Positions 1-59,975 are shown, counted from the stretch's first letter. The stretch: 64,000 nucleotides of DNA from an uncultured virus (IMG/VR IMGVR_UViG_3300003690_000004) (IMGVR_UViG_3300003690_000004); one strand, 5' to 3'. Program-made: numbers and translations. Notes: generated by a model from the letters alone, not told the origin.

Positions 1-32
1 CACTTATCAATAAATCCGGATTGTGGAAAACC

Positions 33-357: not shown

Positions 358-383
358 GCACGGTTTCGTAAATCGGTGGGTTT

Positions 384-6030: not shown

Positions 6031-6106
6031 TATACCGAGTGCAGGGTCGCTGGTACTTAACCTTTCGTTCATTTCGTACTTTCTGATGACCATAGACAGA
6101 ATTATT

Positions 6107-6197
6107 GGCTCGCAGTATCGCGTTTTCGTTAATTTCTGAATTCCTTCAATAGTATGGTTGGTTAGTCTCTCTAAATCCCTATACCTTTGAAGGAATT
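6107..6197. promoter_or_regulatory. Divergent control region with ACTGCGAGCC box and AATTCCTTCAA...TTGAAGGAATT inverted repeat
   Basis: GGCTCGCAGT at 6107-6116; repeat arms at 6139-6149 and 6187-6197; AT-rich segment between divergent operons. Confidence 0.6.
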
Positions 6198-6318
6198 GAA
6201 CATATTCAGAATCGCCTTTCAGTATCACGATTTAATTATTTTCTCAAACCCCGAAAATATGAAATAAATTCCCGAAAAGGGGCGAATGTTTATGAATCAA
6301 AGGAAATTTAGGAGTATC

Positions 6319-13648: not shown

Positions 13649-14506
13649 GTGAAAATGTTGAATCAAGAGGAAGCGGAGTCAATAATTGAGGTAATCAATG
13701 AACGGGCCACAGAATTACGCTCCCTTATCATCACTGTGGGTTCTATCATCGCTATACTGATGCCAGCCGTCGAAATGGTGGGTATTCTCGATATTACACC
13801 TTACGGCCGGGGTGACGATGAGTGGATAACAGATGATGATTGGGAATATGAATCCGACTTTGAGTGTGGGGATGGTAACACCATTCAAGCCTCTTTGGTA
13901 AATGATGGCTACAAGAATTGTAGAGATGGGAGCGACGAGCCCGAGGAAGAGGCCGAGGAAGAGAACAACACAGTGATTCGACCCCCCGAAGGATGCACCG
14001 ACCCAAACGCAGACAACTATAATGAATCAGCCGAGGAAGATGATGGCTCCTGTGAATATGCAGGCGACCAAACCTCCTACGGTTGCACAGATGAGAACGC
14101 CTCAAACTATGATGAGTGGGCCGAAGAAGACGATGGCTCGTGTGAATATGACGCAACGATACATATAGATTGTGGTTGTCGTCCGGAGATGTGGGATGCG
14201 TTTTGGACCTATGATAACCAAACCGACAATATGACTCTTACTTGGGATGCTGATTTAACCTGTGATGTTCCACATAATCTAACCGTGATTTGGACTTTCT
14301 ACTACAACAATACTACCACCAATGAAACGGGAGAGTGGGCCGGGATTCAAGAAACGATGACCTATGAAACTATCTACCAAGATTGGGATTATGTTAATCT
14401 CTCGATTGAGGGTCTTGCTCCCGGCAGATACGACATATTCTCTACCTTTGAATTAGACGATAATTACTATCGAGGGACCGATTGGTATAATGTACAGGTG
14501 GGATGA
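13649..14506 (+). CDS. Membrane-anchored acidic surface protein with LDLa-like module and two GCTD repeats
   Basis: N-terminal hydrophobic helix; CGDG..I....VNDGYKNCRDGSDE; GCTDPNADNYNESAEEDDGSC and GCTDENASNYDEWAEEDDGSC. Confidence 0.75.
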   Translation: MKMLNQEEAESIIEVINERATELRSLIITVGSIIAILMPAVEMVGILDITPYGRGDDEWITDDDWEYESDFECGDGNTIQASLVNDGYKNCRDGSDEPEEEAEEENNTVIRPPEGCTDPNADNYNESAEEDDGSCEYAGDQTSYGCTDENASNYDEWAEEDDGSCEYDATIHIDCGCRPEMWDAFWTYDNQTDNMTLTWDADLTCDVPHNLTVIWTFYYNNTTTNETGEWAGIQETMTYETIYQDWDYVNLSIEGLAPGRYDIFSTFELDDNYYRGTDWYNVQVG

Positions 14507-14617: not shown

Positions 14618-24492
<9,875 letters not shown>

Positions 24493-44282: not shown

Positions 44283-44411
44283 TCATCCACAGAATCCGTC
44301 ACCACAACAGCCTGAAATCTTCTGCTGGCAGATAACGCAGGTAATGGACCCGTGCAGGTCCATGTACCCCTTGAGGCTTCCACAGAAGGGACAGGGTGAT
44401 GGCACCATCAA
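44283..44411 (-). CDS. Small Zn-ribbon protein
   Basis: CPFC...CVIC...CCG motif; start uncertain. Confidence 0.5.
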   Translation of the reverse strand: MMVPSPCPFCGSLKGYMDLHGSITCVICQQKISGCCGDGFCG

Positions 44412-45421
44412 TTCATACCCCCACAATACCAACAAGAGCCGTCGCAGTACCCTCTCGATATGTACCAATGGGGGGACGGAGCATGGTCATAATTATTGAC
44501 GATATGCCGGACTTGTTGAAAGGTTATCGCTGGAACATAATCACGCCAGCCAAGCGTCGATATGTACCCAGCAATTTGCTCAGTGATTTGGTCCCGATTC
44601 TCCCTGCTAACAGAATCGAGTGGAGAAAACAACCGGAGATGTTCAGAGAGATGTTGCACGAGAGCCACACGAATTTCGTGACGGGGGTTGCCCGCTTTCG
44701 CGGCCCGCTCAAGACAAGAAGGGAGAGGAACGCTTAGGGCCTCCCCGACTTGGAAGTCCTTAACCGGGGAAAAGACGCGCCGTTCCACGGCTGGGTTGTC
44801 TGCTATCCACCTCACAATGTTCAAGCCACCTCGGACATTTTCACCTCTGAATGGGTCACGGTACAGTAGAGTTTTGGAGGGTACTCGTGGAATTTCATAA
44901 CCCACAAAATCAGACATGAATGCTTCAACATCTATGTTCACAGCCCATCGTCCACGGGTCGGATTGAAGGTGTCGGGAATCCTTGTTAATTTCTGAGGGT
45001 GTCCTACGCCGTCGAGGGTTGGAAGGCCACGCGCCATCCTTCTCTGATAGCGGTCTATGTGCCTTGCTATTGCCAATCCCATGACTGCCTCGTTGAATAA
45101 TTCATGCACATGAAATCCTCTTCCCGTGGCTACGACTCTAATATCCCCACTTAGGCGAGAAATCAGTGTGTGAACATCACTTCGTACTGCATCCATTCCC
45201 TTATTTTCGGTGGTGTCGAAATCCCACCACGCACGGTCAATTACTACCGATGCCGGGTCCGTCTTCCATGACCTCTCGGGGTGCATTCTGTTAAAGCAGT
45301 AGAGAGAGGTATAACATGACGCCTTCCCATTGAGAGTGTGAATGTATGAGTCGAAATCTTCGCGGCTGTTACACAATTGACGACGCAAGCCTATTTCACG
45401 GGGGAAGCCAAGCAGAGTCAT
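44408..45421 (-). CDS. priS: Archaeo-eukaryotic primase, PriS catalytic domain fused to a PriL-like C-terminal domain (start ATG 45421)
   Basis: WWDFD (DxD), TGRGFHVH, RIPDTFN; C-terminal PSCL...HEIRVAL...CDGSCWYC. Confidence 0.85.
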   Translation of the reverse strand: MTLLGFPREIGLRRQLCNSREDFDSYIHTLNGKASCYTSLYCFNRMHPERSWKTDPASVVIDRAWWDFDTTENKGMDAVRSDVHTLISRLSGDIRVVATGRGFHVHELFNEAVMGLAIARHIDRYQRRMARGLPTLDGVGHPQKLTRIPDTFNPTRGRWAVNIDVEAFMSDFVGYEIPRVPSKTLLYRDPFRGENVRGGLNIVRWIADNPAVERRVFSPVKDFQVGEALSVPLPSCLERAAKAGNPRHEIRVALVQHLSEHLRLFSPLDSVSRENRDQITEQIAGYISTLGWRDYVPAITFQQVRHIVNNYDHAPSPHWYISRGYCDGSCWYCGGMN

Positions 45422-45600
45422 AGTATCACTCCACTTGCTTGTGTCCGCAGACCCTACACTTGGATATAGTAGTTTTGGTGGGTAAATTTTTAAGTTTAAT
45501 TTCTGAGGGCGCCATAGAGCCATCATCATCACATTCCGGACAGTTTGCCATAATATCACTCTATCTGTTGGTGTCCGCAGACCCTACACTTGGCTATAGT
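45419..45600. repeat. About 52-bp imperfect direct repeat, 130 bp period
   Basis: Core GTGTCCGCAGACCCTACACTTGG[A/C]TATAGT at 45441-45470 and 45571-45600; similarity extends to 45419 and 45549. Confidence 0.9.
45426..45551 (-). CDS. 41-aa Zn-ribbon microprotein (not in ORF track)
   Basis: MANCPECDDDGSMAPSEIKLKNLPTKTTISKCRVCGHKQVE. Confidence 0.6.
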   Translation of the reverse strand: MANCPECDDDGSMAPSEIKLKNLPTKTTISKCRVCGHKQVE

Positions 45601-45702
45601 AATTTCCTCATTGACGCCACCCTCTTGTCCCGTCACTCTTCTCATCCTCTCGTAATTGTACCAATCATCACATCCACACTCAGTACAAATCACCACTTTC
45701 AT
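45556..45702 (-). CDS. 48-aa Zn-ribbon microprotein (not in ORF track)
   Basis: MKVVICTECGCDDWYNYERMRRVTGQEGGVNEEITIAKCRVCGHQQIE; ATGA overlap with upstream gene. Confidence 0.65.
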   Translation of the reverse strand: MKVVICTECGCDDWYNYERMRRVTGQEGGVNEEITIAKCRVCGHQQIE

Positions 45703-46571
45703 TGAAACATCTCCGGTCCTAATCCTGTTAATTCGGCTTCACATGACGAGCAAAAATCACACCAAACGGGGCAGAAATACTCGTTCCAATTCATCACCCA
45801 CTCTTCGGAAATTAGTGAGGCGATAGTGGCTGATAAGACTTTCTCCAAAGCATTGATAGACCGCACCGATACTCGCTCTAATATTGCCAAACCCGAATCT
45901 TCTCCGAGCCAAACCTGCTTCCCCTTCTTGGTACCCTCTAACAACAATTTATCAGTGGTACCGGAAGAGTCAATCTCAAAATCAGGGGTGATGTACAGAA
46001 AGTGGGTAACTTCATCATATCCCAATTTCGATAGCATCCGTAGATAGAAAGCCAATTCCCTGCGAGTACGGCTCAGTTTTCCCATGTTCATGTTCCCCGT
46101 CTTCAATTCCACGAGTATTAATCCACCATCAGGATGACGCAAAATCCCGTCCATCATTCCAACCCACACTATTTCGACCGTAACATCTGAAAGAGGCAGG
46201 TATTCGTGAACCTCGTGTTTGACCTCAGATTCGACCACATTGAGCCCCCCGAAGTGGTCTGCGATTTGATGTATCAACGATAGTAGAGCGACAATAGAGG
46301 GGTCGGCCTCAACCCCCTCTTCCTTCGCAACCTCCATGATAACTTCGGGACCTCTCAACAAGCCTGCCGATTGTACTTCGTGAATGGCACTACCACGGAG
46401 CATAGCCTCTGAGGGAGGGGGACTTGGAATACCACTTACATATCTCCACCAAAATTGGCGGGGACACAGTAACATGGTCATAAACGAGGATTTGCTGACT
46501 CTCAAAATCCCTTCTCCCGGGATGTATGAGGATTTCGCTGACTGTTCTTCACTCGCTTTCATCAGTACCAC
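45699..46571 (-). CDS. Cas4-like PD-(D/E)XK exonuclease (solo, Fe-S type)
   Basis: SKSS...CPRQF, GSAIH, GMMD, VELKTG, ELAFY, C-terminal CPVWCDFCSSC. Confidence 0.85.
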   Translation of the reverse strand: MVLMKASEEQSAKSSYIPGEGILRVSKSSFMTMLLCPRQFWWRYVSGIPSPPPSEAMLRGSAIHEVQSAGLLRGPEVIMEVAKEEGVEADPSIVALLSLIHQIADHFGGLNVVESEVKHEVHEYLPLSDVTVEIVWVGMMDGILRHPDGGLILVELKTGNMNMGKLSRTRRELAFYLRMLSKLGYDEVTHFLYITPDFEIDSSGTTDKLLLEGTKKGKQVWLGEDSGLAILERVSVRSINALEKVLSATIASLISEEWVMNWNEYFCPVWCDFCSSCEAELTGLGPEMFQ

Positions 46572-47192: not shown

Positions 47193-49397
47193 CTACAACC
47201 AAAATGAGCCACTAACGCCGTTCAAAGCATTCTCGATTGGTTGGAGGGACCACCCCATCATCTCGTAATAGGGAGCGATTTTTTTCACTATAAACCGCTC
47301 TGCAAGGATGCGATATCCAATGGTCTGAATCCCGCGAATCTCAGAGGGTTTATCAAAGGCGATGTACTTCCCGTTGTCGTTGATAGTCGAGAGGAAGTAG
47401 GACCCCTTTCGATATCCTTTCCCGAGATTTTCGTTGGCCCACGCCGCCCCCGCGTTCGGGCCGGAGAGGACCTTGTACTTGTCGAGGTCCCGCTTCAAGT
47501 GTCCCTTGATGCACAGGTCTTCGGCGTCTATGTCGCCATTAACGACAGACTCTACCAAGAGAGATATTTCCTCAGTCACCTCTTCCTCGTCATCTCCCCT
47601 TAACACAGATTCAATCACCTTCTTCATCACGCTCTTCATCACCTCGGGCATTCGACTCTGTTTCAATTCTATGCCCTTGATGTAGATATGAGGTTCGGGC
47701 CACACCACGGAGGCGGCATAGCGGTTCTTCTCTTTCAACAGCAGACGCTCACACCACTTCTCAAACCGAACCTCAATTGGAGCAAGACGCTCATTGATTT
47801 TCTTCACGAGAGCCTGCCCTTCTTCGGGTGAACCAATCCGACAGAAACATGAATCAGTATGCCCGTAGATAACCTCGCACCCCTCGGACTCTGATATCTC
47901 CTTCAATAAATTCAGAGTTTGTCTGCTTGTGTAGGTGATGGCGGCGGCTACTGCGGGATGATACAGGGAATACTTGGAATCTCCCGCTACACCGTACATA
48001 GAAGCCACCAGCGATTTACAGGCGTACTGCAAGGTGTCCCACCTATCCCTGTTTTCAGCGTCCGTTCTCATCTTCTCCTTGTAGTAGTCACGAAGAGAGG
48101 TCATTCGGTCCATCTGTCTAACGAGAAGACCCCTTTCATTTTGAGAAAAACAGGTTCCGTTTCCACAGTCCTTGCCGTTGGGGTCGAGCGTAGTCCAGCA
48201 AATGTTATGACGCGCGGCGTTACTATGATACATCGCCTTGATATCAAGAATTCCGATTCCATCATGTACACCCACGATGGGGTCCATTACTTCGGCCCCG
48301 TTGTACTCCACCTTATCGAATTGTGCTTTGGTTGGAATTTGGCGGTCGAAATGCTTATCACGCATACAGAGAATGCTGAATAATTTTGTTACAAATGGGG
48401 TGGCTCGGAAGTCGCATTGAACGAGGTGTTGTATCGCCAAGAGGTAATCAATCGCATTCACGAGAGCATCAAGACGGGGAAGAAGGTGCGTGTCCTGCAA
48501 ACAGTAATCAAGATAGAGAGGGAAGTCCGTGTAGTATGTATCGTGACCGTCCTTCAATTCAACCTTACTATCTCCCAAGCAGTGCTTCGACACATCACCG
48601 AGGCCATATCCGGCTAATTTTCCGTTCTTCAATTCCCACAGTTTAGAGAAGGCGAGCATGAGGTCAATGCAAAGGCGCCCGACTATTGGTTGGGCCCAAT
48701 CTCCATACTCATAGCGCAGGCGACGCATGGGGGAAAGATGAGTAGCGTTGAGGCCATTGACCGTGCATCTTTCAATGATGGTTTTCACATCAGCCTGTGT
48801 AACATACCAACCGGTGATTATATCAGGGTCCTGCTCCTTCATCTCGGTGATGAAGGAAATCAGCATCTCCTTCTCAGTATCGAAAAATCGGACTGATTGG
48901 CCCTTGATGGTGTGCGTTCCCGCCTTGTAGTCCTTATGCACAGCCCACAGATAGTCTTCTTCTGTGTAATTATCGTGGACCGAAATTATCCGCATAGAAT
49001 TGGTGTCGGGGTGCCACTCGCAATCTATGTACCAAATACGGTGGTCATAATTTCTGATAATGCGTCCTGTGTCCTTGAACCTGTCGCACAAGACCCTATT
49101 CACGAAGGGGATATTCGCCTCCCAAGTTTGGCCCGCCTTAGCGATTTGACCCACATGGTACGGTTGACTCGTGATGACCTTTGTTAATCGCTCCCCGTAT
49201 AATCCGGTATAACCACGCTCAGTCTTCAAGACCCCGTAGTCCTGCTTGTAACCGTACCCATCAAAGAGGGTTTCGCCCTCCGTTTCTTGTACGAAGCAGT
49301 AAGGAAAATAACTGCTGATTGATAGCATTTGGCGCTCGCGGTTATCGTCGCGGTATCTCACCATAACTTGTCGGCCACGGCCGCGCTCAACAATCAT
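47193..49397 (-). CDS. polB: Family B DNA polymerase
   Basis: Exonuclease motifs DCE and YCLQD; polymerase motifs DIKAMYHS, KSLVASMYG, YGHTDS, KNRY, KGIE; 734 aa, no intein. Confidence 0.93.
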   Translation of the reverse strand: MIVERGRGRQVMVRYRDDNRERQMLSISSYFPYCFVQETEGETLFDGYGYKQDYGVLKTERGYTGLYGERLTKVITSQPYHVGQIAKAGQTWEANIPFVNRVLCDRFKDTGRIIRNYDHRIWYIDCEWHPDTNSMRIISVHDNYTEEDYLWAVHKDYKAGTHTIKGQSVRFFDTEKEMLISFITEMKEQDPDIITGWYVTQADVKTIIERCTVNGLNATHLSPMRRLRYEYGDWAQPIVGRLCIDLMLAFSKLWELKNGKLAGYGLGDVSKHCLGDSKVELKDGHDTYYTDFPLYLDYCLQDTHLLPRLDALVNAIDYLLAIQHLVQCDFRATPFVTKLFSILCMRDKHFDRQIPTKAQFDKVEYNGAEVMDPIVGVHDGIGILDIKAMYHSNAARHNICWTTLDPNGKDCGNGTCFSQNERGLLVRQMDRMTSLRDYYKEKMRTDAENRDRWDTLQYACKSLVASMYGVAGDSKYSLYHPAVAAAITYTSRQTLNLLKEISESEGCEVIYGHTDSCFCRIGSPEEGQALVKKINERLAPIEVRFEKWCERLLLKEKNRYAASVVWPEPHIYIKGIELKQSRMPEVMKSVMKKVIESVLRGDDEEEVTEEISLLVESVVNGDIDAEDLCIKGHLKRDLDKYKVLSGPNAGAAWANENLGKGYRKGSYFLSTINDNGKYIAFDKPSEIRGIQTIGYRILAERFIVKKIAPYYEMMGWSLQPIENALNGVSGSFWL

Positions 49398-49401
49398 GCT
49401 C

Positions 49402-49758
49402 TCACGACTTGCCGAATCGGCTCGCCTTGCTGAATCGCCCGCGTGGTCGAGTCGGTATGTCGTGCTTTCGTAGCCAATTGTGAATGCTCATGGCGCTAAC
49501 GCCGTTCTCATCCCCTATGTCTTGGCAGGAGCGGTGGTTCCCGATGTATTCCGTCACCAAGTAGTCCTTCTTTCGATAGGGAGGGGTTGGAGGCTTCAAT
49601 CGAATGAGAACATCACAGAGAATGGTGCCTCCATCCTCACTTCTCCACGAGAAGCGGGATTTACCGAAGCGTGGGACTTCTAAATCCAATTTCCAACCCC
49701 CGGAAGTCGCATGGATGTCGGGGTCCATCGAAATGTGCTTCGTCCGACTATCACGCAT
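49402..49758 (-). CDS. HTH DNA-binding protein
   Basis: YRKKDYL...SCQDIGDENGVSAMSIHNWLRKHDIPTR. Confidence 0.7.
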   Translation of the reverse strand: MRDSRTKHISMDPDIHATSGGWKLDLEVPRFGKSRFSWRSEDGGTILCDVLIRLKPPTPPYRKKDYLVTEYIGNHRSCQDIGDENGVSAMSIHNWLRKHDIPTRPRGRFSKASRFGKS

Positions 49759-50569
49759 CTACAATCCCCGCTTGGTATATGAAGTCCCGTTCGCCATGAG
49801 TTATAAGCATGGCTATACCTTGATTGAAACTGCGGAAGTCCAAGAAATTCAGAGTCAGACTCCCGTTGAGGTGTTGAAGGACATGGTTCAATCCCCCGTT
49901 ATAAGCGACCTCAAATCCCTCATCAGTGAGGGGGATATCATCACGAAGAACGGTGGTAGTAGTCCCTTTCAGGTCCCCTCCCACAGTGAGGCTCAGAACG
50001 CGGCCATTGAGCGTGAAGGTAAAGGCGTTGCTCTTCTGAGAATTCATGTTCACACAACGAACGGCCTCAAACAATTCGACAGCATCCATTTCCGCACTGA
50101 GCATGGGGCTTATTTTGGTGCCATCTCGCATGGTGTAAATCGCTGTGCGAGCATCTATTGATGCGGCCCGCTCCATTGAGCGTGTTTCCCATTCCATGAG
50201 GCTGTGCGGACTATGAGGGAATGCCTTCGCATTCTCGCTGGCTAAGAGTGTCGTTGATTTGTTGCCGGATTTCAGCCGTAGTTTCCCATCAAAATTGATG
50301 TTGAGTAACCCGCCGTGAAATTTCAGCGCCCCTTTGATGCGCTCGATGTCGGGAATGGGTATAGCGCATCCCGTGGGACTGTCTGCATCACAGGAGAAGC
50401 GGGATAGAGAAGTCACGCCATCCCTCACGAGCGAAACTATGCTCGCACTTCCTTGACCGTCACCCCGTAGCATACAGGCTATGACTTGTGGATTGGTGGA
50501 GCCCGCAACGGTCTGCTTACGCTGAGTCCTCTCCAACAATCTTTGAAGTGCGGCGGTCTGTACTTTCAT
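49751..50569 (-). CDS. Sliding clamp (PCNA-like), divergent
   Basis: About 270 aa, two-domain alpha/beta pattern, located between polB and RFC genes; low sequence conservation. Confidence 0.6.
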   Translation of the reverse strand: MKVQTAALQRLLERTQRKQTVAGSTNPQVIACMLRGDGQGSASIVSLVRDGVTSLSRFSCDADSPTGCAIPIPDIERIKGALKFHGGLLNINFDGKLRLKSGNKSTTLLASENAKAFPHSPHSLMEWETRSMERAASIDARTAIYTMRDGTKISPMLSAEMDAVELFEAVRCVNMNSQKSNAFTFTLNGRVLSLTVGGDLKGTTTTVLRDDIPLTDEGFEVAYNGGLNHVLQHLNGSLTLNFLDFRSFNQGIAMLITHGERDFIYQAGIVDA

Positions 50570-50570
50570 C

Positions 50571-50969
50571 TCAATGACTCCAATGGATTGCCGCATTCAT
50601 CATGTTGATGTGCTTATCCATGATTGCATCTTCCTCACTATCAAAGCACTCGTCTTCTTCTTGAATCCTTCGGAGAGTGAACCACTCCCTCCCCCAATGC
50701 CACCACTTCTCGTAGTATCGCTGTAATTGGTCGGTGGTAAAGCCCATGTATGTTGAGAAGATAGAGCCCAAACCGACAATTTGGTCATAGGCCCCATCCC
50801 ACTTCTCGTTGTATTCCACCCACTCCAACCAATCTTGAAAGTGGGGTTCGTCACCCGTGATGATGTCGTGAACGAGTTTTTCAGCGTGTGTTTCTCCTGC
50901 TATAACATTGAAAAGAGATGGATATTTCAGATGTTTTTCAGCGTGTGTTCCTTCAAGCCACCCCTTCAT
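50571..50969 (-). CDS. Hypothetical acidic/aromatic protein
   Basis: 132 aa; internal repeat THAEK twice. Confidence 0.55.
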   Translation of the reverse strand: MKGWLEGTHAEKHLKYPSLFNVIAGETHAEKLVHDIITGDEPHFQDWLEWVEYNEKWDGAYDQIVGLGSIFSTYMGFTTDQLQRYYEKWWHWGREWFTLRRIQEEDECFDSEEDAIMDKHINMMNAAIHWSH

Positions 50970-51121: not shown

Positions 51122-52166
51122 TGTCGGGCTCCCCCTCGGTTGTAGCGGGTTCGTCCACAGTGGGCTCGGGCTCCGGCTCGTCTTCGTCCCATGTTAGGAA
51201 GGGGAGGCCATTCCATTTAACCTTGCCGTTCTTGATGGATAGAATCGTGTGTGTAGTCCCCAAGTATTCCATGTTGCGTCCCTTCATTTCCTCAATCTCA
51301 CCCTTAATGGCCCATTCGCCCTCAGCGAGAGATTTGTCGGGCTTCACGCCCGCCGCAGGGTCGGGGTTCCTCATGTAGCGAGTTAGGAATACCTGCTGTG
51401 AAAAGAGCCTCATGGTTCCCTTCTCCCACTCGGGGCGCTCTCCTATCGTCATCAGCACCTTCTTTCCCGTGCCGTCATTGACGAATTCCTTGATTTCCTT
51501 CAAGTGGAAGGTGAAGAAGACCTTCGGGATAGGCAGACCGTGAATGCGGTTGACTGTATCGCGGAATAACTGATTGCGAATCCTCCACTCGGCTTGGTTG
51601 AATTTGTCCCCGTTCGCCGGGTCCACAGGATTTTTACTTCTGTTTTGTAAAACATAGGTCATAGAGTGTTCACACCACTTTAGGAAGGTGGAGCCACCAT
51701 CAAAGATAATGGCGCCGTACTCATCGGGGTCCTCCTTGACTTTCTGCGCGAGTATGTTGACGAACCAATTGACCTTATCCACAAGGGCGACATAATTCGT
51801 GGTGTTATCGTCGTTGAATATGGAATCATCGGTTTCATCATAGATGGGAAGAACCTCAATGTTAGGGGTGTCGGGGAAGACGAAATCCACCGTAGCCTTC
51901 GCGCTGTTATCAATGTCGAAGATGATGACCTTCTTCCCTGCCTTAATCGCGCCTTCGCAGAGGGACACAGCGAGTCCGGTCTTGGCCGTGTTCTCGCGTC
52001 CAACAAGAGCCATGCGAACATCAACGACTTGAGCGCGAGTGTTCTCAAACAAGTTACGATAGTAAGCACCGTCATAAACGGGTGCAGGGGGCGCCTTTGT
52101 AGCAGTGGTTTTACCACCACTCTTTGCTCCCCATCCCTTTTGGGCGGCCGTCGTCACTCGTCCCAC
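51108..52166 (-). CDS. RecA-superfamily ATPase (Sak4/AAA_24- or RadA-like recombinase)
   Basis: P-loop GRENTAKT, IIFDID, IIFDGGS, W..RN, VFFTFH. Confidence 0.7.
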   Translation of the reverse strand: MGRVTTAAQKGWGAKSGGKTTATKAPPAPVYDGAYYRNLFENTRAQVVDVRMALVGRENTAKTGLAVSLCEGAIKAGKKVIIFDIDNSAKATVDFVFPDTPNIEVLPIYDETDDSIFNDDNTTNYVALVDKVNWFVNILAQKVKEDPDEYGAIIFDGGSTFLKWCEHSMTYVLQNRSKNPVDPANGDKFNQAEWRIRNQLFRDTVNRIHGLPIPKVFFTFHLKEIKEFVNDGTGKKVLMTIGERPEWEKGTMRLFSQQVFLTRYMRNPDPAAGVKPDKSLAEGEWAIKGEIEEMKGRNMEYLGTTHTILSIKNGKVKWNGLPFLTWDEDEPEPEPTVDEPATTEGEPDNEEG

Positions 52167-53362
52167 CCCTCATCATCAAGCGTTACATCATCACCATTAG
52201 CCACAGGGATTACATCGTGAGCGTACCATCCATTTACGGTCAAGCGGATATCGCCCTCGCGGGTACGCCATACCTGTCCGAACAGTAGGACCTTCGTACC
52301 GATGGCGAATTCAACCTTGTCCGCATGGACGCCGGACACGAATACCTCCTGTGGGGGAGCGAGTGAAGTGATATCCAAATCACTCACGATTAGGACACAG
52401 CCGCCGTTGTCGCGTGGGTCCATGTGAATGACTTCACCAACCACGGCGATATTACGGTCATACCAACCATCAGTGCCTTGATTATCATTGAGGAAGGGTT
52501 CTAGCGCGTCGAAGTTATCGAGGAAGTCAACACCGAGTAATTCCGTTATCAAATCCAAAGGCGGAGCGGAAAATATCTCCTGCTTGGTTTCATCCGCATT
52601 GAAGACAGACAGACCGTTGCGAACCGCATAAGCAACGGCTGGGTTGCGTCCGGTCTTGAGAGCGATTGTGCCCGCAACAAAGGTGGGAGGATAAAGTTTG
52701 TCTGCCGCCTTTCCCTCAGCCTTGACCTTGAGAAGAGTCGGGGTATCGTTGGTGCCCTCCCTTCGTCCCAAGAATAGACAGGTTCGCTCGCGTTCATCCT
52801 GTGGTCGGGCCTTCCCGTACTTGAAATTGGGGTCCCCGGAAGGATATGTGGGGTTGTTCTTATCCCACACGACATAGAAGGAGGTCAAGCCGTCACTCAG
52901 CGTAACAGTGTGACGAGGCAATTCCGAAACCGTGGCTTCGTCTATGCCTTCCCCGCCGTTGAAGAAGGCTCCGCTCCCGCGGCGTTGATATGTTCCATCT
53001 CCGTTTGAATTGAATATAACGACCGAACCTTCACTGACGAGGTTTTCCGTGGCTTGGGCCGGCAGACTCTCCAATTGATTTCTCATCTTGTTATAGAGGA
53101 TTTTACCCCACTCCTTCGGGCGCGGGACACTGATGAACATTCCCTCAAAGCGGGTCGCCCCGGAGCGGGCCATTTGTGCGTTCTCCCGTCCAATCATCTG
53201 CGCGGCTACGCGCACGGACAGTATCTTGCAGGCGTCCTCATCGTGTCCGGCGCGCTCCCAATCAGCACCCTTCTCAGAGAGGATATGAGAGGCAACCTCC
53301 GATAGATTTTCGGGGGTTGTGTTGAGGCTCGTTGCCAAGTTAGTAATCATATCATCTGCCAT
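52154..53362 (-). CDS. OB-fold single-stranded DNA-binding protein (RPA-like)
   Basis: C-terminal OB-like VVGEV...VSDLD...GTKVLLFGQV; acidic tail DDEGWDE; next to recombinase; GGAGG ribosome-binding site. Confidence 0.55.
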   Translation of the reverse strand: MADDMITNLATSLNTTPENLSEVASHILSEKGADWERAGHDEDACKILSVRVAAQMIGRENAQMARSGATRFEGMFISVPRPKEWGKILYNKMRNQLESLPAQATENLVSEGSVVIFNSNGDGTYQRRGSGAFFNGGEGIDEATVSELPRHTVTLSDGLTSFYVVWDKNNPTYPSGDPNFKYGKARPQDERERTCLFLGRREGTNDTPTLLKVKAEGKAADKLYPPTFVAGTIALKTGRNPAVAYAVRNGLSVFNADETKQEIFSAPPLDLITELLGVDFLDNFDALEPFLNDNQGTDGWYDRNIAVVGEVIHMDPRDNGGCVLIVSDLDITSLAPPQEVFVSGVHADKVEFAIGTKVLLFGQVWRTREGDIRLTVNGWYAHDVIPVANGDDVTLDDEGWDE

Positions 53363-53412
53363 AGTAGTCCTCCCCTCCGGGTATTCCTGCCGACCTTGCG
53401 TTCGCTTATAAC

Positions 53413-54315
53413 CTAACCGGTCACACACATACGGACGAAGTTTGCTCTCACAACATCGTGGGATATTCCCAAGTAGAGGTCCCTTTCAGCCGTGATGGCG
53501 GCTTCAATAACCCGCATCTTGGATGTATTCTTGGCGTTAGTCTGCACAGCGTAATTGAACACCTCCCGAATTCCTTCACGGGTAGCGTAAGGGGATAGGA
53601 GAGCGAGTGAGGCGTCATAGTCTTGGTCCTTGAAAGACAGACGGAGAAAAGTAGAGGCATCGGGAACCGCCGTTACGAAGGAATTGATGAATACTGTCCG
53701 TTCTTCGGGGGAAGCCACGGAATAATATTGGAGTGCGTTAATAGCATTCCGAAGGTCCCCATCGTGATGCTTCACGATGGCCGCGAGATGTGTGTCGGAT
53801 ATCTCCACTGCTTCGCGCCCAGCGATATAGGAGAGGCGCCCCGTCATGGAGTCGTCGTCTATGGGATAGAATTCTATCAGACGACAGCGTGAAATAAGAT
53901 AGTCGCTGATTTTCCCGAGGTCGTTACAGGTGAGAATGAAATATCCCTGCGCGTTTTCTATCACTCCCTTCAAGGCCGCTTGGGCCGCCGGGGTCAATTG
54001 GTCTGCCTCATCCAATAAGATAATCTGATTCTCATTTCCAATGGTTGTGAGAGGGAGCAGGTCGTCCTGTACGAAGTCAATCCCGCGCTCATGCTTGGTG
54101 CTGGCATTGAAGATGTGAATAGGCCAATCGAGCGCATCGGCGAGGGCGAGAGCATAACTCGTTTTTCCCACACCCGGAGTTACGGAATGAAGGAGGGTGT
54201 GTTGTACCCAGCCATCGTTTCCGAAAACCTCATCCTCCGCCAACATCACCGTCAATTGAGGTTGCCCGACAATTTCAGACAGCGAAGGTCTGTACTTCTG
54301 CGACCACACAGTCAT
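53413..54315 (-). CDS. rfcS: Clamp loader, RFC small subunit
   Basis: WSQKYRP, PGVGKT, NAS, LLDEAD, AQAAL, FILTCN, SRC, GDLRNAINALQ. Confidence 0.93.
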   Translation of the reverse strand: MTVWSQKYRPSLSEIVGQPQLTVMLAEDEVFGNDGWVQHTLLHSVTPGVGKTSYALALADALDWPIHIFNASTKHERGIDFVQDDLLPLTTIGNENQIILLDEADQLTPAAQAALKGVIENAQGYFILTCNDLGKISDYLISRCRLIEFYPIDDDSMTGRLSYIAGREAVEISDTHLAAIVKHHDGDLRNAINALQYYSVASPEERTVFINSFVTAVPDASTFLRLSFKDQDYDASLALLSPYATREGIREVFNYAVQTNAKNTSKMRVIEAAITAERDLYLGISHDVVRANFVRMCVTG

Positions 54316-56020: not shown

Positions 56021-56202
56021 TCATCATCCATAGAAAGAAACATCGCTGAGTCAATAAACGAGGCATCTCCCCCCTGCTGGTTGACGCCTCGTGAAATGAT
56101 GGGAGGACCGTACATTTTCGTGAGAACCCATACGATGATTCCCACCACTATAAATGGAGAAGCCATACAGAGGCCGACTGCTAATGCCTCACTCACACCC
56201 AT
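56017..56202 (-). CDS. Small membrane protein
   Basis: PFIVVGIIVWVL hydrophobic helix. Confidence 0.5.
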   Translation of the reverse strand: MGVSEALAVGLCMASPFIVVGIIVWVLTKMYGPPIISRGVNQQGGDASFIDSAMFLSMDDD

Positions 56203-56597
56203 TCACTCACTGCCTCCTTCCGTTTCTTGATACCCTTCGGTATTGTGTCTGCCTGTTCCCTTATCTGATTGGCAACGCGCGGCTCCCTTTCAGTAATTTC
56301 ACGCCAATATTCATCTCGTGCAGTGAACGGTAGTGGAGGTGGGTCGCTCCCCGGTTTCTTCGGGAAGATAACTTCCTCCTGCATCGGTTTAATCCCGAAT
56401 GCGAGAGCAGAGCGAACAAAATCAGCAGGTATAGTGTACGGGTTGTTCACAATAAGCCTCAATAAGTTCAAATCCTCGGGACGGTTCGCTTGAGTGAAAG
56501 AAATCAGAAGGGGAATTGGGACACACGAAATCTGATGAAAGACTCGTTGCCTGTCCTTCCAAAGGAAAACAGATTTCAATGCCTGTGCAAACTTCAT
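56193..56597 (-). CDS. Hypothetical protein
   Basis: 134 aa, ATGA-coupled to upstream gene. Confidence 0.55.
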   Translation of the reverse strand: MKFAQALKSVFLWKDRQRVFHQISCVPIPLLISFTQANRPEDLNLLRLIVNNPYTIPADFVRSALAFGIKPMQEEVIFPKKPGSDPPPLPFTARDEYWREITEREPRVANQIREQADTIPKGIKKRKEAVSEWV

Positions 56598-56957: not shown

Positions 56958-57200
56958 TCATAGACCCCGAGCCCCCTCCGGCCAATCCATCCCTCGGGTT
57001 CGCATCAATTTCCATCCGCAATAAACATCTGACTTGTGGTTTCGTCGCCACAGCGCACCCTTGATTATTTGGTTGTTGAAAAACTGAACAGCGCCGTTCT
57101 CGCCGGGGAAAAATCGTGGGGTGATTCTCGCAAGTTCCCACTCCGCATTGTCGTGGTCGTAGCGTCCGTTACGGATAAGGCCGGTGACTTTGTACTCCAT
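56958..57200 (-). CDS. Hypothetical protein
   Basis: 80 aa, TAATG-coupled to upstream gene. Confidence 0.5.
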   Translation of the reverse strand: MEYKVTGLIRNGRYDHDNAEWELARITPRFFPGENGAVQFFNNQIIKGALWRRNHKSDVYCGWKLMRTRGMDWPEGARGL

Positions 57201-57832
57201 TAGTTATCACTCTCCTTGAATTCCACATCAATGACCGGCGCTCTCAGTGCGGACATTCTCAATTCAACCTCGTCCAATAACTCGGGATGGGGGCGCAAGA
57301 TATCCACGAGCAATTGACTCATTTGGGTCATACGCGCTTCCTGCAACAGCAATTGACTATCAACCCCTATCTCCTTCTTCAATTGACCAATCATACGGAG
57401 GGAGGTGTTCGCCTGTCCCATGAGTTTAGTTACATCGGCGACCCACTCAGAAGATATGCCCCCTTGTGCCTGCTTCTGTTCCTCCAATTCATCCATCCAC
57501 ACAATCAGTCGGCCGAACAGATGATTAGCCATGTCGAGCGTATCAATGGATTGGGTTCGCATTTGCTCCACATGACGCGCCTCCGCGGGGTCATACTCGA
57601 TGTGGTTCTCCGTGTGGTTCATCACGGTGCCATCGGGCCACCCATGTTTGTTCTCAAGATAAACGGGACTGTATTCCTCATTCCGCAGACCCATTTCGTA
57701 CTCCTTCCGGTCCTTATGCTCACAGAAGGTACAGCCTCCATCAAGGACCCAACGCAGGACCTCGATAGCGAAGGCATCATTCTCAGCCGCCAAACGCTTC
57801 TGAATTTCACTCTTGGATTTCATGTACCCCAC
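57200..57832 (-). CDS. Zn/HTH plus coiled-coil protein, candidate terminase small subunit
   Basis: CTFCEH...HTENH followed by helical oligomerisation-like region and C-terminal PVIDVEF. Confidence 0.45.
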   Translation of the reverse strand: MGYMKSKSEIQKRLAAENDAFAIEVLRWVLDGGCTFCEHKDRKEYEMGLRNEEYSPVYLENKHGWPDGTVMNHTENHIEYDPAEARHVEQMRTQSIDTLDMANHLFGRLIVWMDELEEQKQAQGGISSEWVADVTKLMGQANTSLRMIGQLKKEIGVDSQLLLQEARMTQMSQLLVDILRPHPELLDEVELRMSALRAPVIDVEFKESDN

Positions 57833-59142
57833 CTCTTGAAATCGCTCTTGTTATTCTGCAACCCGATACGACAGACGACACCCTTTCGCCCGCGCCTTGT
57901 AACCTCCGGCTCGTACTCATCATAAAAGTCCTGTCCCTCCAAGTTTTCGATAATCCACCGCTTCGCGGACTGATAATCACCGCTCGTTATCATGCGGGAA
58001 ACCTCCTTCACCAATTGGGACTTAGCAAGGTCCCGCATCCAAAATGTGCTTCTGATTAATTCAAGGTCCGCGTCCATGACTCGGCGACGCATAGCGAGGG
58101 AGTCATCGAGCAATTTCCTCAGTTTATCATCGAGTGTGACGATTAGGGGGGACCCTCCGTGATACTCGCTACTCATCATGTGATAGCCTATGCACAGACG
58201 GCGAAACAGGTCGGCTTCATAGGAGCGCACACTTGGTTGGTCAATCCATTCGGCCACATCGTCATCGAAGATAACACCCGTGGGAGGATTAGACACGGCT
58301 TCAAGCATCCGGTCACGAAACCACTTCTTAATCCCGAGGCTCTTATCGGCGAGGACGACCCGTTCCTCCCTCGACATATTGGCCTGCGCGTGTTGTGCCG
58401 ACTTGTACTGTGCCTCCTTCTCGGGGGTCATCTCGATATCAATTATGAAAAATCGCCGGTCAAGTCCTGAATCCAATTCAAAGCGGGCAGGCTGAGTCCC
58501 GGCCCATAGGGTCGCGCGTGTAGTGTACTTCACCCATCCCGCCTTCATAGCCTTCTGTACCCTCCCGTTATCGAGAGCGGTCAGCAATTGGTTCTTCATG
58601 TCGAGGCTGTGGTCCTTCTTGGAGGCATCAGACATCGAAGAAAATTCTTCAAAACCAAGAAAACCACCACAGACTTCACGAACAAGCGGGCGCCCCATGA
58701 TGTCCCCGAATTCATCCACAGAGCCGAACATTCCTGCCTCTGTTACACTGTTGGGTCCCATCATGGTCAAGTAACCCTCTCCCATGTCCGCGTTCTGATT
58801 GTGAAGGAATCCTGTCCCTTCCGCGAGGAACATGAGAATGAGAATGGACTTCCCGCTCCCCTTCGGACCACGCAGAAGGATATGAATGCGCGTGTCGGGT
58901 AACTGCATCATGGGAGTGTAGAAGGGTGGGTTAGGGTGCCTCAAGGGGCAGTGAGGAATCACGAAGTCCCCGCCTTCTTCATCAACGAAGGGGCTAAGGG
59001 GGTCGAAGTCACACCGAGAGCATTTATTGAGGGTGTTGAACAGATGACCCCCGATGCTACATACGAAGATATCAATTTTGTCCTGTACATCCACGAAATG
59101 ACTTCTATCGGTGAATTTCAATATTTCATCGAATATATTCAA
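57820..59142 (-). CDS. MCM-like AAA+ ATPase lacking the MCM N-terminal domain
   Basis: IHILLRGPKGSGKS, SVTEAGMFGSV, GGFLGFEEF, LLTALDNG, LDRRF. Confidence 0.78.
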   Translation of the reverse strand: MNIFDEILKFTDRSHFVDVQDKIDIFVCSIGGHLFNTLNKCSRCDFDPLSPFVDEEGGDFVIPHCPLRHPNPPFYTPMMQLPDTRIHILLRGPKGSGKSILILMFLAEGTGFLHNQNADMGEGYLTMMGPNSVTEAGMFGSVDEFGDIMGRPLVREVCGGFLGFEEFSSMSDASKKDHSLDMKNQLLTALDNGRVQKAMKAGWVKYTTRATLWAGTQPARFELDSGLDRRFFIIDIEMTPEKEAQYKSAQHAQANMSREERVVLADKSLGIKKWFRDRMLEAVSNPPTGVIFDDDVAEWIDQPSVRSYEADLFRRLCIGYHMMSSEYHGGSPLIVTLDDKLRKLLDDSLAMRRRVMDADLELIRSTFWMRDLAKSQLVKEVSRMITSGDYQSAKRWIIENLEGQDFYDEYEPEVTRRGRKGVVCRIGLQNNKSDFKRWGT

Positions 59143-59975
59143 CCGAACATACCCCCCTCTTCTTCCCCGAAGCCGGAGGCCATAAACCTGTCGAGCGAAA
59201 GGTCATCTCCCATCCCTTCCAGCGTGGAGAGACTGTCTATTGCATTGAAGAATGCGCTCTCACTGTACGATAGACCCAACACCCCATCGGCATAATCTAA
59301 GAGCCCATCCATACCATCTCGGTCTAAGAAATTTTCGGGGCATTGTGTGAACACTATCCACACCCCCCTATCTTCATTCATGCAGAAATTCTTGAAGACA
59401 CACGACCACATCCACGCGGGCGGGGTACACACGATATCTCCCTCCACGGGAATACCGGCCAACGATAGAGGCTCTTCCTCTGTATTCATGTAGTCAAATA
59501 CTGCCAAGCCGGTCAAGTCATGGGTAGTGTGGGGGGTGAAGATGCTCATAGTATCGCTCGTGAAAAATGTGGACTGATGAACGCCACATTCGTTCAGTGA
59601 TAGGGTAATGTCGCGCAGGATTGGGTAACAATACAGCCACACATAATTGTTGGCGGCAGGGTCGGCATCTATCATAGTGGGAGCAAAGTGGATAATTCTG
59701 AGGATGAATACCCGCTCTCCCTCGTCGCTTTTTCGCTCGTACAAACGCCACTCGGGGAAAAGAGGGTCAGGTATCTCGTTGAATGCCGGAACAGCGAACA
59801 GTTTTGAGAAGATTCTCGCAATCGGTTTTTCATCCCCGATTAGACCCATGCCCGCACCGAACGAGGCAAACCCCTGCTCCCCTTGATTGAAGATGAGAAT
59901 ATGGGTGGGCTCCCTTTCGGGCTTCCCGTCAATCCACACTATCTCAGTGTCCTTCATGTCTTCAATGAATTTCAT
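59139..59975 (-). CDS. PAC2 (proteasome assembly chaperone, PbaA/PbaB)-like protein
   Basis: 278 aa; PIARIFSKLF, RLYE...FILR, YPILRDITLSLNECGVHQSTFF, DGMDGLLDYADGVLGL; acidic tail ending MFG; remote similarity judged by eye. Confidence 0.45.
   Translation of the reverse strand: MKFIEDMKDTEIVWIDGKPEREPTHILIFNQGEQGFASFGAGMGLIGDEKPIARIFSKLFAVPAFNEIPDPLFPEWRLYERKSDEGERVFILRIIHFAPTMIDADPAANNYVWLYCYPILRDITLSLNECGVHQSTFFTSDTMSIFTPHTTHDLTGLAVFDYMNTEEEPLSLAGIPVEGDIVCTPPAWMWSCVFKNFCMNEDRGVWIVFTQCPENFLDRDGMDGLLDYADGVLGLSYSESAFFNAIDSLSTLEGMGDDLSLDRFMASGFGEEEGGMFG

Follow-up and report, generated by a model that had tools for sequence, protein, structure and literature searches.

Organization of the locus

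The window, by which we mean the whole 64,000-nucleotide stretch of DNA analysed here, comes from an uncultured virus (IMG/VR IMGVR_UViG_3300003690_000004) that we regard as a tailed virus of marine origin, equipped for replication in the archaeal manner. It carries two adjoining genes on the minus strand, named here ORF-A and ORF-B, and the end of ORF-B is overlapped in turn by the next gene, orf210 (Table 1). The C-terminus of ORF-A reads ...LDRFMASGFGEEEGGMFG, with EEEGGMFG as its final residues. An initial annotation of the locus, made from the sequence alone, had described a 278-aa protein with this acidic tail, whose gene overlaps the start of an AAA+ gene, and the ORF listing of the window confirmed all of these points. 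The 3’ end of ORF-A is ...atg ttc ggt tga, and the TTG start codon of ORF-B falls inside the GGT TGA. This start is plausible because the N-terminus that it gives to ORF-B, MNIF..., aligns with the N-termini of independently called homologues. For orf210, neither Pfam nor PHROGs gave a significant match, and the single match of its profile to the PDB (E 0.35) was dismissed as chance.

Table 1 Features of the ORF-A/ORF-B locus and the candidate clamp gene, with positions counted from the first letter of the window.
Feature	Position	Strand	Basis or remark
ORF-A, 278 aa, virus-encoded protein with predicted PAC2 fold (PbaB-like)	59139..59975	-	ATG start; AlphaFold, Foldseek, VIA
ORF-A long C-terminal helix, residues 239-267	59175..59261	-	DSSP; counterpart of PbaB ‘tentacle’ helix alpha6
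ORF-A acidic/Gly tail, residues 268-278, GFGEEEGGMFG	59142..59174	-	Predicted disordered, pLDDT <50
ORF-A terminal tripeptide M-F-G, last three codons	59142-59150	-	Sequence
TTGA overlap, ORF-A stop and ORF-B TTG start	59139..59142	-	4 nt, sequence reading
ORF-B, 440 aa, putative MCM / helix-2-insert type AAA+ ATPase, no N-terminal OB-fold tier	57820..59142	-	TTG start; VIA, Foldseek on poor model
ORF-B Cys/His cluster C28, H33, C41, C44, C65, H69	58936..59061	-	Invariant in alignment
ORF-B Walker A, R91-S99, RGPKGSGKS	58846..58872	-	Invariant in 29 homologues
ORF-B Walker B-like, G159-E166, GGFLGFEE	58645..58668	-	Invariant in 29 homologues
ORF-B candidate arginine finger, R229-R230 in SGLDRRF	58453..58458	-	Invariant in 29 sequences
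ORF-B winged-helix-like C-terminal domain, residues 357-430	57853..58074	-	VIA rows 18-50, Z 5-6, weak
orf210, next gene of the conserved block, overlaps ORF-B end	57200..57832	-	40-80% identity in 31/35 loci
Candidate viral sliding clamp gene	49751-50596		Atlas features 0.92 vs viral gp45-slide_C / PCNA_N clusters, lead only

The predicted fold of ORF-A

The AlphaFold monomer model of ORF-A (pLDDT 91.5, pTM 0.88) was compared with known structures by Foldseek and VIA, and both comparisons pointed to the PAC2 family. The best PDB match in Foldseek was PbaB (3vr0, E 4.6e-9, TM 0.61/0.67), and PAC2-family entries fill nearly all of the best 40 ranks listed. In VIA, rows 1-30 are PAC2 family throughout (PbaB, PbaA, PAC1/PAC2; Z 11.1-19.0), while the next fold class, the nucleoside phosphorylases, reaches a Z of at most 10.4. 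The top-scoring PbaB alignment (Z 19.0, rmsd 4.2) comprises 225 of 248 residues and extends to model residue 262. The model has the three-layer alpha-beta-alpha arrangement of PAC2 proteins, so that the PAC2-like fold, which the initial annotation had proposed on a remote likeness judged by eye, is the one predicted, with PbaB as the closest structure. The tail that had been called flexible, residues 268-278, is likewise predicted to be disordered.

At the sequence level the relationship is faint. When a profile of 57 family members was run against the PDB sequences, 11 matches were obtained, with PbaB (3vr0_A, E 0.029) in the first place and PbaA (3wz2_A) at E 0.54, and both of these align to the C-terminal part only. 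With a threshold of E 0.1, the Pfam PAC2 model PF09754 failed to match any of the 57 members, which counts against a proteasomal role of ORF-A; the nearest virus record (G001) likewise gave no match to it. For ORF-A of the window, neither Pfam (E up to 1) nor phmmer among the PDB sequences gave a match, and Pfam, PHROGs and NCBIfam assigned it to no family. The ORF-A profile, run over one genome per prokaryote species, returned 49 pattern matches and no relative among them. The IBD and HSF clusters suggested for ORF-A by the ESM Atlas, with scores of 0.80-0.85, fall below the lead level of 0.9 and were rejected as chance. On this model, ORF-A belongs to the PAC2 fold class as a strongly diverged viral member, nearest to the archaeal proteasome activator PbaB. 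Its predicted layout is that of PbaB, with an alpha-beta-alpha core followed by a long helix at the C-terminus and then by a loose tail rich in Gly, Asp and Asn.

PbaB of Pyrococcus furiosus (PDB 3VR0) is an ATP-independent activator of the archaeal 20S proteasome. It shares with ORF-A the three-layer fold, a similar size and, in the passages that describe it, a long C-terminal helix followed by a disordered end with an aromatic penultimate residue. The two differ in that ORF-A is only about 14% identical to PbaB, under the Pfam PAC2 threshold, ends in M-F-G (in its family mostly [ML][FW]G) instead of the Gly-Tyr-Leu given for PbaB in those passages, and is a viral protein, known here from its sequence and a monomer model, whose gene lies in a replication operon and is coupled to an AAA+ ATPase gene. 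The same fold is found in PbaA (3WZ2 and 5Y9N, VIA Z 16.8 and 16.3), Ta1441 of Thermoplasma acidophilum (3GAA, Z 14.6), the actinobacterial PAC2 proteins Rv2125 and Rv2714 (Z 15.6-15.7), and the entries of eukaryotic PAC1/PAC2 and Pba1/Pba2 (Z 11.1-15.0); unlike ORF-A, none of these is viral and none is tied to a helicase gene. The eukaryotic PAC1/PAC2 and Pba1/Pba2 proteins are heterodimeric assembly chaperones. According to passages of PMC3605417, PbaA and Ta1441 also bear C-terminal HbYX tips, the C-terminal helix is in both packed against the core, and PbaA failed to bind to the mature 20S.

A possible resemblance of ORF-B to the AAA+ part of MCM helicases

The initial annotation had also called ORF-B a truncated MCM-like ATPase. 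This description is borne out at the level of the fold, on a low-confidence model (pLDDT 64.1, with residues 127-228 below 50), and finds no counterpart among sequence models. In a wide VIA search with this model, MCM subunits occupy the ten best rows (Z 9.9-11.7, 215-260 residues), and the matches fall on the AAA+ parts of the MCMs, for example residues 1-354 of ORF-B on residues 344-661 of 8ouw_6. RavA, BchI and ComM rank after the MCM rows with nearly equal scores (Z 9.0-9.8). The best Foldseek ranks are almost all MCM, with a best E of 8.5e-4 and TM of 0.30 or lower. The AAA+ domains of MCM helicases (archaeal MCM, eukaryotic MCM2-7, MCM8/9) thus give the best alignment of the model, and ORF-B has, as they do, Walker A and Walker B motifs, a candidate arginine finger and a winged-helix-like C-terminal domain. 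The arginine finger is suggested by the invariance of R229-R230 in SGLDRRF, which we take to resemble the SRFD motif of MCM.

ORF-B differs from MCM in its length of 440 aa and in lacking the OB-fold / zinc-finger domain of the N-terminal tier, in place of which the stretch before Walker A holds a short cluster of Cys and His (residues 28-69). This cluster is a possible zinc site, judging from its invariant residues. The Pfam MCM model (PF00493) misses the family: at E up to 10 it has no match in five related genomes, compared with 14/14 control genomes that match, and at E up to 1 it matches 0/29 family members. Within Pfam, ORF-B gives weak P-loop matches only; its phmmer and profile matches in the PDB were rejected as P-loop matches at chance level, tblastn against the GenBank phage collection found no match, and a match to the C-terminal part of P4 primase in NCBIfam is weak (E 0.011; the cut-off is 108.7 bits). 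Overall, ORF-B looks MCM-like on a predicted structure in which the ATPase core is poorly modelled.

Conservation of the ORF-A C-terminus

To judge from the 57 family representatives, the C-terminal tail of ORF-A is conserved beyond chance. An aromatic residue occupies the penultimate position (-2) in 46 of them (W 23, F 17, Y 6), compared with an aromatic background of 11.7% (raw counts, with kinship ignored). Elsewhere within the last ten residues, the aromatic count per position lies between 0 and 9, with 0 at -1 and 9 at -3. Gly is the last residue in 28/57 and M or L stands at -3 in 32/57, so that the commonest form of the tip, and probably the ancestral one, is [ML][FW]G. In a subgroup whose identity to the window protein is only about 17-27%, all 15 aligned sequences share the W-G, and all 19 complete distant loci have [ML]WG-type tips. 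A C-terminal hydrophobic-aromatic-X element, for which the conservation of the tripeptide had been suggested as a check, is therefore kept in homologues down to 17-25% identity. An aromatic residue at a fixed register from the free C-terminus fits selection by a pocket that reads the terminal carboxylate.

The tip is not uniform. It differs among close relatives (MFG, FYA, DYI, EMV, MWG). An aromatic residue at -2 is missing from 11/57 members, which counts against a proteasomal target. One subclade (L009-L014) has lost the tip (EMV, NIQ, QVV, YNV) and kept the ORF-A/ORF-B pair. Tails of the acidic-aromatic-X type are present in 11/57 members and are mostly E-W-[VIL], as in the replication-operon protein orf134.

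The hallmark of HbYX is Tyr. Since Tyr is rare in the ORF-A tail, this is not a canonical HbYX, and strict Hb-Y-X occurs in 4/57 members; the window tip, M-F-G, is not of this form. As worded in passages of PMC3493965, a looser rule (a small or hydrophobic residue, then Phe or Tyr) covers M-F-G, and Trp, found at -2 in 23/57 members, lies outside both the strict and the looser forms. The HbYX tails of PAN, Cdc48/VAT and AMA are, like that of ORF-A, flexible hydrophobic-aromatic-X C-termini; the ORF-A tail differs from them in sitting on a PAC2-fold protein, with Trp commonest at -2 and Gly commonest at the end.

Lineage and host of the virus

Homologues of ORF-A number 77 among 1.84 billion representatives (50% clustering), and the names of their cluster members are every one blank or ‘hypothetical’; the family is a conserved feature of a marine virus lineage of wide distribution. 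Genomes of this lineage measure 61-68 kb. Their gene content and size are compatible with group C magroviruses as these are outlined in passages of the literature, and the hosts proposed there for this group are marine group II archaea (PMC5434244), a setting that speaks for a proteasomal target of ORF-A. An MCM protein is listed for all 26 magrovirus genomes by Philosof et al. in the same passages (PMC5434244). Satyavativiridae, with 87 kb and no replisome, were rejected as the lineage. The sole match of the family in a cellular genome is a 61-kb contig (L035) in a MAG labelled Opitutales, which carries the same ORF-A/ORF-B pair. A proteasome is not expected in a host of the Opitutales type. 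The contig has the size of a whole genome of the lineage, and we tentatively read it as a mis-binned viral one.

Candidate partners of the ORF-A tail

PAC2-family proteins are cellular proteasome chaperones or activators. Judged by its predicted fold and conserved tip, ORF-A probably inserts into a ring-shaped partner, which would be the host proteasome or the virus’s own helicase. We favour the alpha ring of the host 20S as the target, with a rough probability of 0.4, over the MCM-like ring and a sliding clamp. An ORF-A oligomer would, as PbaB does, insert its C-terminal tips into the pockets of the ring-shaped partner, most likely the 20S alpha ring, and the virus may in this way cap the host protease early in infection. 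For PbaB, passages of PMC3605417 attribute both binding and activation of the 20S solely to the C-terminal tripeptide Gly-Tyr-Leu, carried on a disordered stretch that follows a helix likened to a tentacle. Similarly, PAN-A of M. mazei has a natural Phe at the penultimate position that is counted as HbYX, and changing this Phe to Tyr makes it a much stronger activator (passages of PMC3493965), implying that an F/W tip of ORF-A may open the gate poorly. Human 20S accepts Phe or Tyr at P2, as stated in part of PMC8907193, and the portions of the literature on HbYX tips that we consulted held no example of a Trp at this position binding the 20S. With Trp or Phe, in place of Tyr, at the penultimate position in most cases, the ORF-A tip would be expected to bind with weak or no gate opening, and ORF-A would then block or occupy the docking sites of host activators instead of activating degradation.

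The initial annotation had proposed that the virus may gate, redirect or inhibit the host proteasome. This claim is weakened by the rarity of Tyr in the tail (6/57), by the subclade that lost the tip and kept the gene pair, by the similar Trp tips of other replication proteins of the same viruses (see below), and by the host, which is so far a proposed one. The orf134-type acidic tails also count against it, as does the fact that the ORF-A gene is never seen apart from ORF-B, inside a replication operon. Docking on the 20S, if true, would be to our knowledge the first sign of archaeal viruses targeting the proteasome, and it would provide a natural experiment on Trp or Phe replacing Tyr at the HbYX pocket. 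Full-text literature searches found no report of an archaeal or bacterial virus that encodes a PAC2-family protein. Within the portions consulted, the proteasome is unmentioned in the literature on Poseidoniales viruses, PAC2 is unmentioned in part of that literature, and PAC2/PbaB are unmentioned in the ProEnd survey of HbYX.

The organization of the genes points to another partner. ORF-B was found in 34/35 related loci (the remaining locus is truncated where its contig ends), and it directly follows the ORF-A homologue in every locus where the latter was located, the two genes overlapping by 1-4 nt or standing 3-5 nt apart. ORF-A leads a conserved block of genes in the order ORF-A, ORF-B, orf210, orf81, orf134, orf145, RFC, orf424; the replication operon, which is conserved, thus opens with ORF-A, closely linked to the gene of the MCM-like ATPase. 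This arrangement favours a role of ORF-A alongside the helicase, as an accessory subunit, as a loader or as a stand-in for the N-terminal tier, with the proteasome uninvolved. An oligomer of the PAC2-fold protein would then lie on top of the AAA+ ring, with its C-terminal tips plugged into that ring. The restriction of the predicted ORF-B matches to the AAA+ part of MCMs and the survival of the gene pair after loss of the ORF-A tip agree with such a role, which would give the PAC2 fold a new job and explain how an MCM is assembled without its N-terminal tier. We nevertheless consider it rather unlikely. Across the same loci, identity to the window proteins is 21-72% for ORF-A and 55-91% for ORF-B, and so much faster evolution of ORF-A would be unusual for an obligate partner of a constrained ring. 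A search of 1649 longer candidates for a fusion of ORF-A with ORF-B found none, which is weak evidence against this role, and we know of no PAC2-fold protein in replication.

The distribution of W-G elements bears on the same question. In the group with a variable or lost ORF-A tip, most ORF-B proteins have a hydrophobic-W-G element near their C-terminus, and in 16 of the 17 [ML]WG-type loci in which both tails were read, with L032 as the exception, ORF-B has no such element. This complementary pattern hints that ORF-A and ORF-B share one docking task, in support of a helicase partnership; we keep it as a mere hint because few independent changes underlie it.

Other proteins of these viruses end in comparable tips. 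The C-terminus of PolB is x-W-[LVI] and that of orf134 is x-W-[VLIF], each in 6/6 genomes, and the PD-(D/E)XK nuclease and orf424 of the same genomes have acidic stretches with W or F at the C-terminus. Because all four end in Trp/Phe tips, these viruses probably have a hub that recognizes tips of this kind. The virus also probably encodes a clamp-like protein, for which we have a candidate gene as a lead from Atlas features (Table 1), and clamp clients with C-terminal aromatic motifs are known. The ORF-A tail could then be one more clamp-binding or replisome-hub tip, as its 11/57 acidic-aromatic-X forms would suggest, but we regard this as quite improbable. The main ORF-A tip has Gly as the last residue and a hydrophobic residue at -3, whereas the last residue of the PolB and orf134 tips is hydrophobic in 12/12 and Gly in none. 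The profile of the clamp candidate found nothing among the PDB sequences. Moreover, the ORF-A tip varies in genomes where the PolB and orf134 tips are constant, suggesting that its target may be a different one, possibly host-encoded.

As a further alternative, ORF-A could serve viral replication proteins or virion proteins as a holdase or assembly chaperone that needs no ATP, gripping unfolded clients with its helix and tail as the C-terminal segments of PbaB do, and without docking on a ring. This seems very improbable: these PbaB segments suppress aggregation (passages of PMC3605417) and the magrovirus replication cluster contains chaperonin genes (passages of PMC5434244), but a holdase surface would not fix one aromatic residue exactly at the penultimate position family-wide.

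Besides docking of ORF-A on the host 20S by itself, which we prefer, ORF-A and ORF-B might form a single virus-built machine, a long shot in our estimation. A PAC2 ring would replace the N-terminal tier of the MCM-like motor, and the shared [ML]-W/F-G tips would join this motor to the alpha ring of the host 20S as an ATP-driven viral cap. Alternatively, a ‘reverse HbYX’ link would have the PAC2 protein plug into the ATPase ring. The W-G element, whether carried on ORF-A or near the end of ORF-B, would then be the common docking tip.

A predicted PAC2 fold in ORF-A

Searches with the single sequence of ORF-A, the protein encoded directly before the P-loop ATPase ORF-B, found nothing in Pfam, PHROGs, NCBIfam or the PDB sequences. 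Seven close relatives were present in a set of 5.8 billion proteins, and a profile built from these retrieved 77 representatives from a set of 1.84 billion proteins, with E 1e-10 or better for 52. The alignment comprises 57 members: the window protein, six close relatives and 50 of these representatives, the latter picked on length and coverage in the hit table before their C-termini were seen. Fragments and partial matches, together with a single 703-aa protein, make up the 27 that were left out. With this alignment as input, the AlphaFold model of ORF-A (pLDDT 91.5, pTM 0.88) shows an alpha-beta core and a long helix at residues 239-267, and its C-terminal residues 268-278 are disordered. 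In the Foldseek search of the PDB with this model, PAC2-family entries filled almost every one of the top 40 ranks shown, including PbaB (3vr0, E 4.6e-9, TM 0.61/0.67), PbaA, Rv2714, Ta1441, Rv2125, yeast Pba1/Pba2 and human PAC1/PAC2, the human matches coming from structures of proteasome assembly intermediates. VIA-align rows 1-30 were likewise all PAC2 family (PbaB: Z 19.0, 225 aligned, rmsd 4.2), with the next fold class at Z ≤ 10.4, so that the PAC2-like fold proposed in the initial annotation is borne out by the model. The alignment profile gave 11 matches among PDB sequences, with PbaB first (E 0.029) and PbaA listed (E 0.54), and the Pfam PAC2 model matched none of the 57 members. Because the structure searches return the PAC2 fold and the Pfam model is blind to the whole alignment, we place ORF-A, on its predicted structure, in a remote branch of the PAC2 fold, outside the family by the Pfam threshold. 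A comparison of the model with predicted viral structures gave just two matches (E 1e-16 and 1e-15), both unnamed proteins, which are taken as members of the ORF-A family. In full-text searches of the literature that connects PAC2 or PbaB with viruses, we found no PAC2 protein encoded by an archaeal or bacterial virus. The word 'proteasome' is absent from the main text of the Poseidoniales-virus papers covered, as is 'PAC2' where looked up, and their figures and supplements may annotate the gene; the accessible text of the ProEnd HbYX survey has no mention of PAC2 or PbaB.

Conservation of the ORF-A tip and its possible target

The C-terminal tail of ORF-A is conserved, as the initial annotation had suggested checking for the terminal tripeptide. 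An aromatic residue occupies the penultimate position in 46 of the 57 members (W 23, F 17, Y 6) against a family background of 11.7%, counts that ignore kinship among members whose representatives were clustered at 50% identity. Aromatic residues number 0 at position -1, 9 at -3 and 1-6 at each position from -4 to -10, and this confinement to -2 implies that the register of the tip is fixed relative to the free C-terminus. The last residue is Gly in 28/57 and the third-last M or L in 32/57. By class, 28 tips are hydrophobic-aromatic-Gly, 11 acidic-aromatic-X (mostly E-W-[VIL]), six other hydrophobic-aromatic-X and one other; 11 members have no aromatic at -2, and a strict Hb-Tyr-X tip occurs in four. 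Several sequences left out of the alignment also end in MFG, FYA, EWV or MYQ. W-G is invariant in a subgroup about 17-27% identical to the window protein (15/15 aligned sequences, 19/19 complete loci), and the tip is lost in one subclade (L009-L014), which ends in EMV, NIQ, QVV or YNV.

PbaB is described as a homotetramer with tentacle-like C-terminal helices that run out into disordered segments, and its last three residues (Gly-Tyr-Leu) are needed for 20S binding and activation (PMC3605417). In M. mazei PAN-A, Phe is natural at the penultimate position and a Tyr in its place made activation much stronger (PMC3493965). For human 20S, both Phe and Tyr are acceptable at P2 (PMC8907193). In the accessible text on proteasome-docking tails, we saw no case of a penultimate Trp binding 20S. 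From the PbaB tail precedent, the natural but weaker Phe and the lack of precedent for Trp, we infer, with a probability of about 0.4, that ORF-A would be a PbaB-like protein whose tips plug into the host 20S alpha ring, where it would more likely be an occupant or blocker than a strong gate opener.

Gene coupling of ORF-A to a predicted MCM-like ATPase

The ORF coordinates and the four bases common to the ORF-A stop and the ORF-B start (TTGA) confirm the overlap of the two genes noted previously.

Window features, with their strand and C-terminal or start properties
Feature	Position	Strand	Description
ORF-A	59139-59975	-	ATG start; 278 aa; C-terminal end ASGFGEEEGGMFG
ORF-B	57820-59142	-	TTG start; 440 aa
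orf134	56193-56597	-	ends x-W-[VLIF] in 6/6 genomes
orf424	52154-53428	-	acidic end with W or F
Candidate clamp-like protein	49751-50596	-	281 aa; conserved in all five relatives
PolB	47193-49397	-	ends x-W-[LVI] in 6/6 genomes
PD-(D/E)XK nuclease	45699-46571	-	acidic end with W or F
550-aa protein	4576-6228	-	metallophosphatase ('DNA repair exonuclease') domain; adjoins terminase gene

The TTG start of ORF-B is plausible, since independently called homologues start at the same position of its MNIF... N-terminus. ORF-B was found by tblastn in 34 of 35 related loci (L025 ends at a contig edge), and an ORF-A homologue lies directly upstream wherever one was located, with a 1-4 nt overlap or a 3-5 nt gap; the two genes are thus tightly coupled. 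Across the same loci identity is 55-91% for ORF-B versus 21-72% for ORF-A. ORF-A is the first gene of a conserved block (followed by ORF-B, orf210, orf81, orf134, orf145, RFC and orf424), and the genes upstream of it differ among loci. One locus, L035 4169-5597, encodes a 275-aa protein ending GMWG and then an ORF-B homologue on a contig of a MAG labelled Opitutales; that contig, at 61 kb, is as long as a complete genome in this lineage and is probably viral and mis-binned, not a host clue.

Invariant features of ORF-B are a Cys/His cluster, Walker A, the Walker B-like motif GGFLGFEE and SGLDRRF. Sequence libraries gave weak P-loop matches only, and even with E allowed up to 10, Pfam MCM matched none of five related genomes. 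The AlphaFold model is poor (pLDDT 64.1, residues 127-228 below 50), and the all-against-all structural search with it was topped by ten MCM chains (Z 9.9-11.7, 215-260 residues), aligned through their AAA+ parts, with RavA, BchI and ComM next in rank; residues 357-430 matched winged-helix domains, and Foldseek agreed weakly with MCM (best E 8.5e-4). Given weak sequence matches and MCM-topped searches on a poor model, ORF-B as an MCM-like AAA+ protein without the N-terminal tier is supported at the fold level only; the earlier proposal of a truncated MCM-like ATPase is supported to that extent. A rival reading, somewhat less likely than docking on 20S, is that ORF-A would serve the MCM-like ring as an accessory protein or stand in for its N-terminal tier.

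Aromatic tips on other replication proteins

We compared C-terminal tips in six genomes, the window and five near-complete relatives. For two of the proteins in the table the endings are, more closely, EMFQ/EWDV/GEWL and similar (PD-(D/E)XK nuclease) and acidic with GW[DE] (orf424), and the virion-module proteins compared have no conserved aromatic tip of this kind. The conserved Trp/Phe tips of PolB, orf134, orf424 and the PD-(D/E)XK nuclease together resemble a set of tails by which viral replisome proteins would dock on a hub or clamp. The product of 49751-50596 is probably clamp-like: its language-model features (Atlas) resemble viral sliding clamps (gp45-slide_C / PCNA_N clusters, 0.92), which we treat as a lead only, Pfam gave a sub-threshold DUF6948 (E 0.057) and a profile search of the PDB gave nothing. 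Aromatic tips on several replication proteins together with this candidate make a viral hub reading C-terminal Trp tips likely. That ORF-A is itself a clamp or hub client like PolB is improbable; it shares an aromatic tip, but in its main form this tip ends in Gly with a hydrophobic residue at -3, and the tip differs among close relatives (MFG, FYA, DYI, EMV, MWG), whereas the PolB and orf134 tips are constant. Least probable is a holdase acting independently of the conserved tail. ORF-B often has, 1-6 residues before its C-terminus, a hydrophobic-W-G element (in the window KRWGT, 57820-57850 (-); tails read in L001-L034), present in most of the group where the ORF-A tip is variable or lost and absent in 16/17 [ML]WG-type loci with both tails read, a pattern with few independent changes behind it.

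Virus genome and lineage

The window is a tailed-virus genome. Its virion arm encodes terminase, portal, tail tube, tape measure and a 3173-aa collagen-repeat protein, and the replication arm on the opposite strand a family B polymerase, an RFC-like clamp loader, a Sak4/RadA-like ATPase, ERCC4-HhH and PD-(D/E)XK nucleases and a metallophosphatase nuclease adjoining the terminase. Among GenBank phage records, the polymerase is matched best over its full length by tailed haloarchaeal viruses (22-24% identity), and CheckV rates five relatives of 61-68 kb as 92-100% complete. Magroviruses are described as having 65-100 kb and an archaeal-type replisome that is nearly complete and includes an 'MCM protein', with marine group II archaea as proposed host, and their group C as having a PolD-exonuclease-like nuclease inserted at the terminase, without ligase (Philosof et al., PMC5434244); the 550-aa metallophosphatase protein matches this insert. 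From the size, replisome and terminase-side nuclease, the lineage appears to be magrovirus group C-like, which would make marine group II archaea its putative host.

The collagen-repeat ORF (14971-24492 (+); Pfam Collagen, 26 stretches, E 1.3e-168), which is mostly triple-helix repeats with higher GC and a strong AT skew, probably encodes a giant fibre protein. Directly after the tape-measure gene, a 2541-aa ORF (35943-43568 (+)) is 30-37% identical in five relatives and has no match in Pfam or PHROG. GC is 0.62 in window 1-2000 versus about 0.48-0.51 over most of the window, and the ORFs at 384-1769 and 1724-2281, in or near this GC-rich start, have no family match. A 285-aa protein (13649-14506 (+)) carries an LDL-receptor class A module (Pfam E 4.5e-6), unusual for a microbial virus. 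Finally, a conserved 383-aa protein (44408-45559 (-)) has invariant WWDFD and GRGFHxH motifs and a C-terminal Cys cluster, and by its motifs we take it to be presumably an archaeo-eukaryotic primase.
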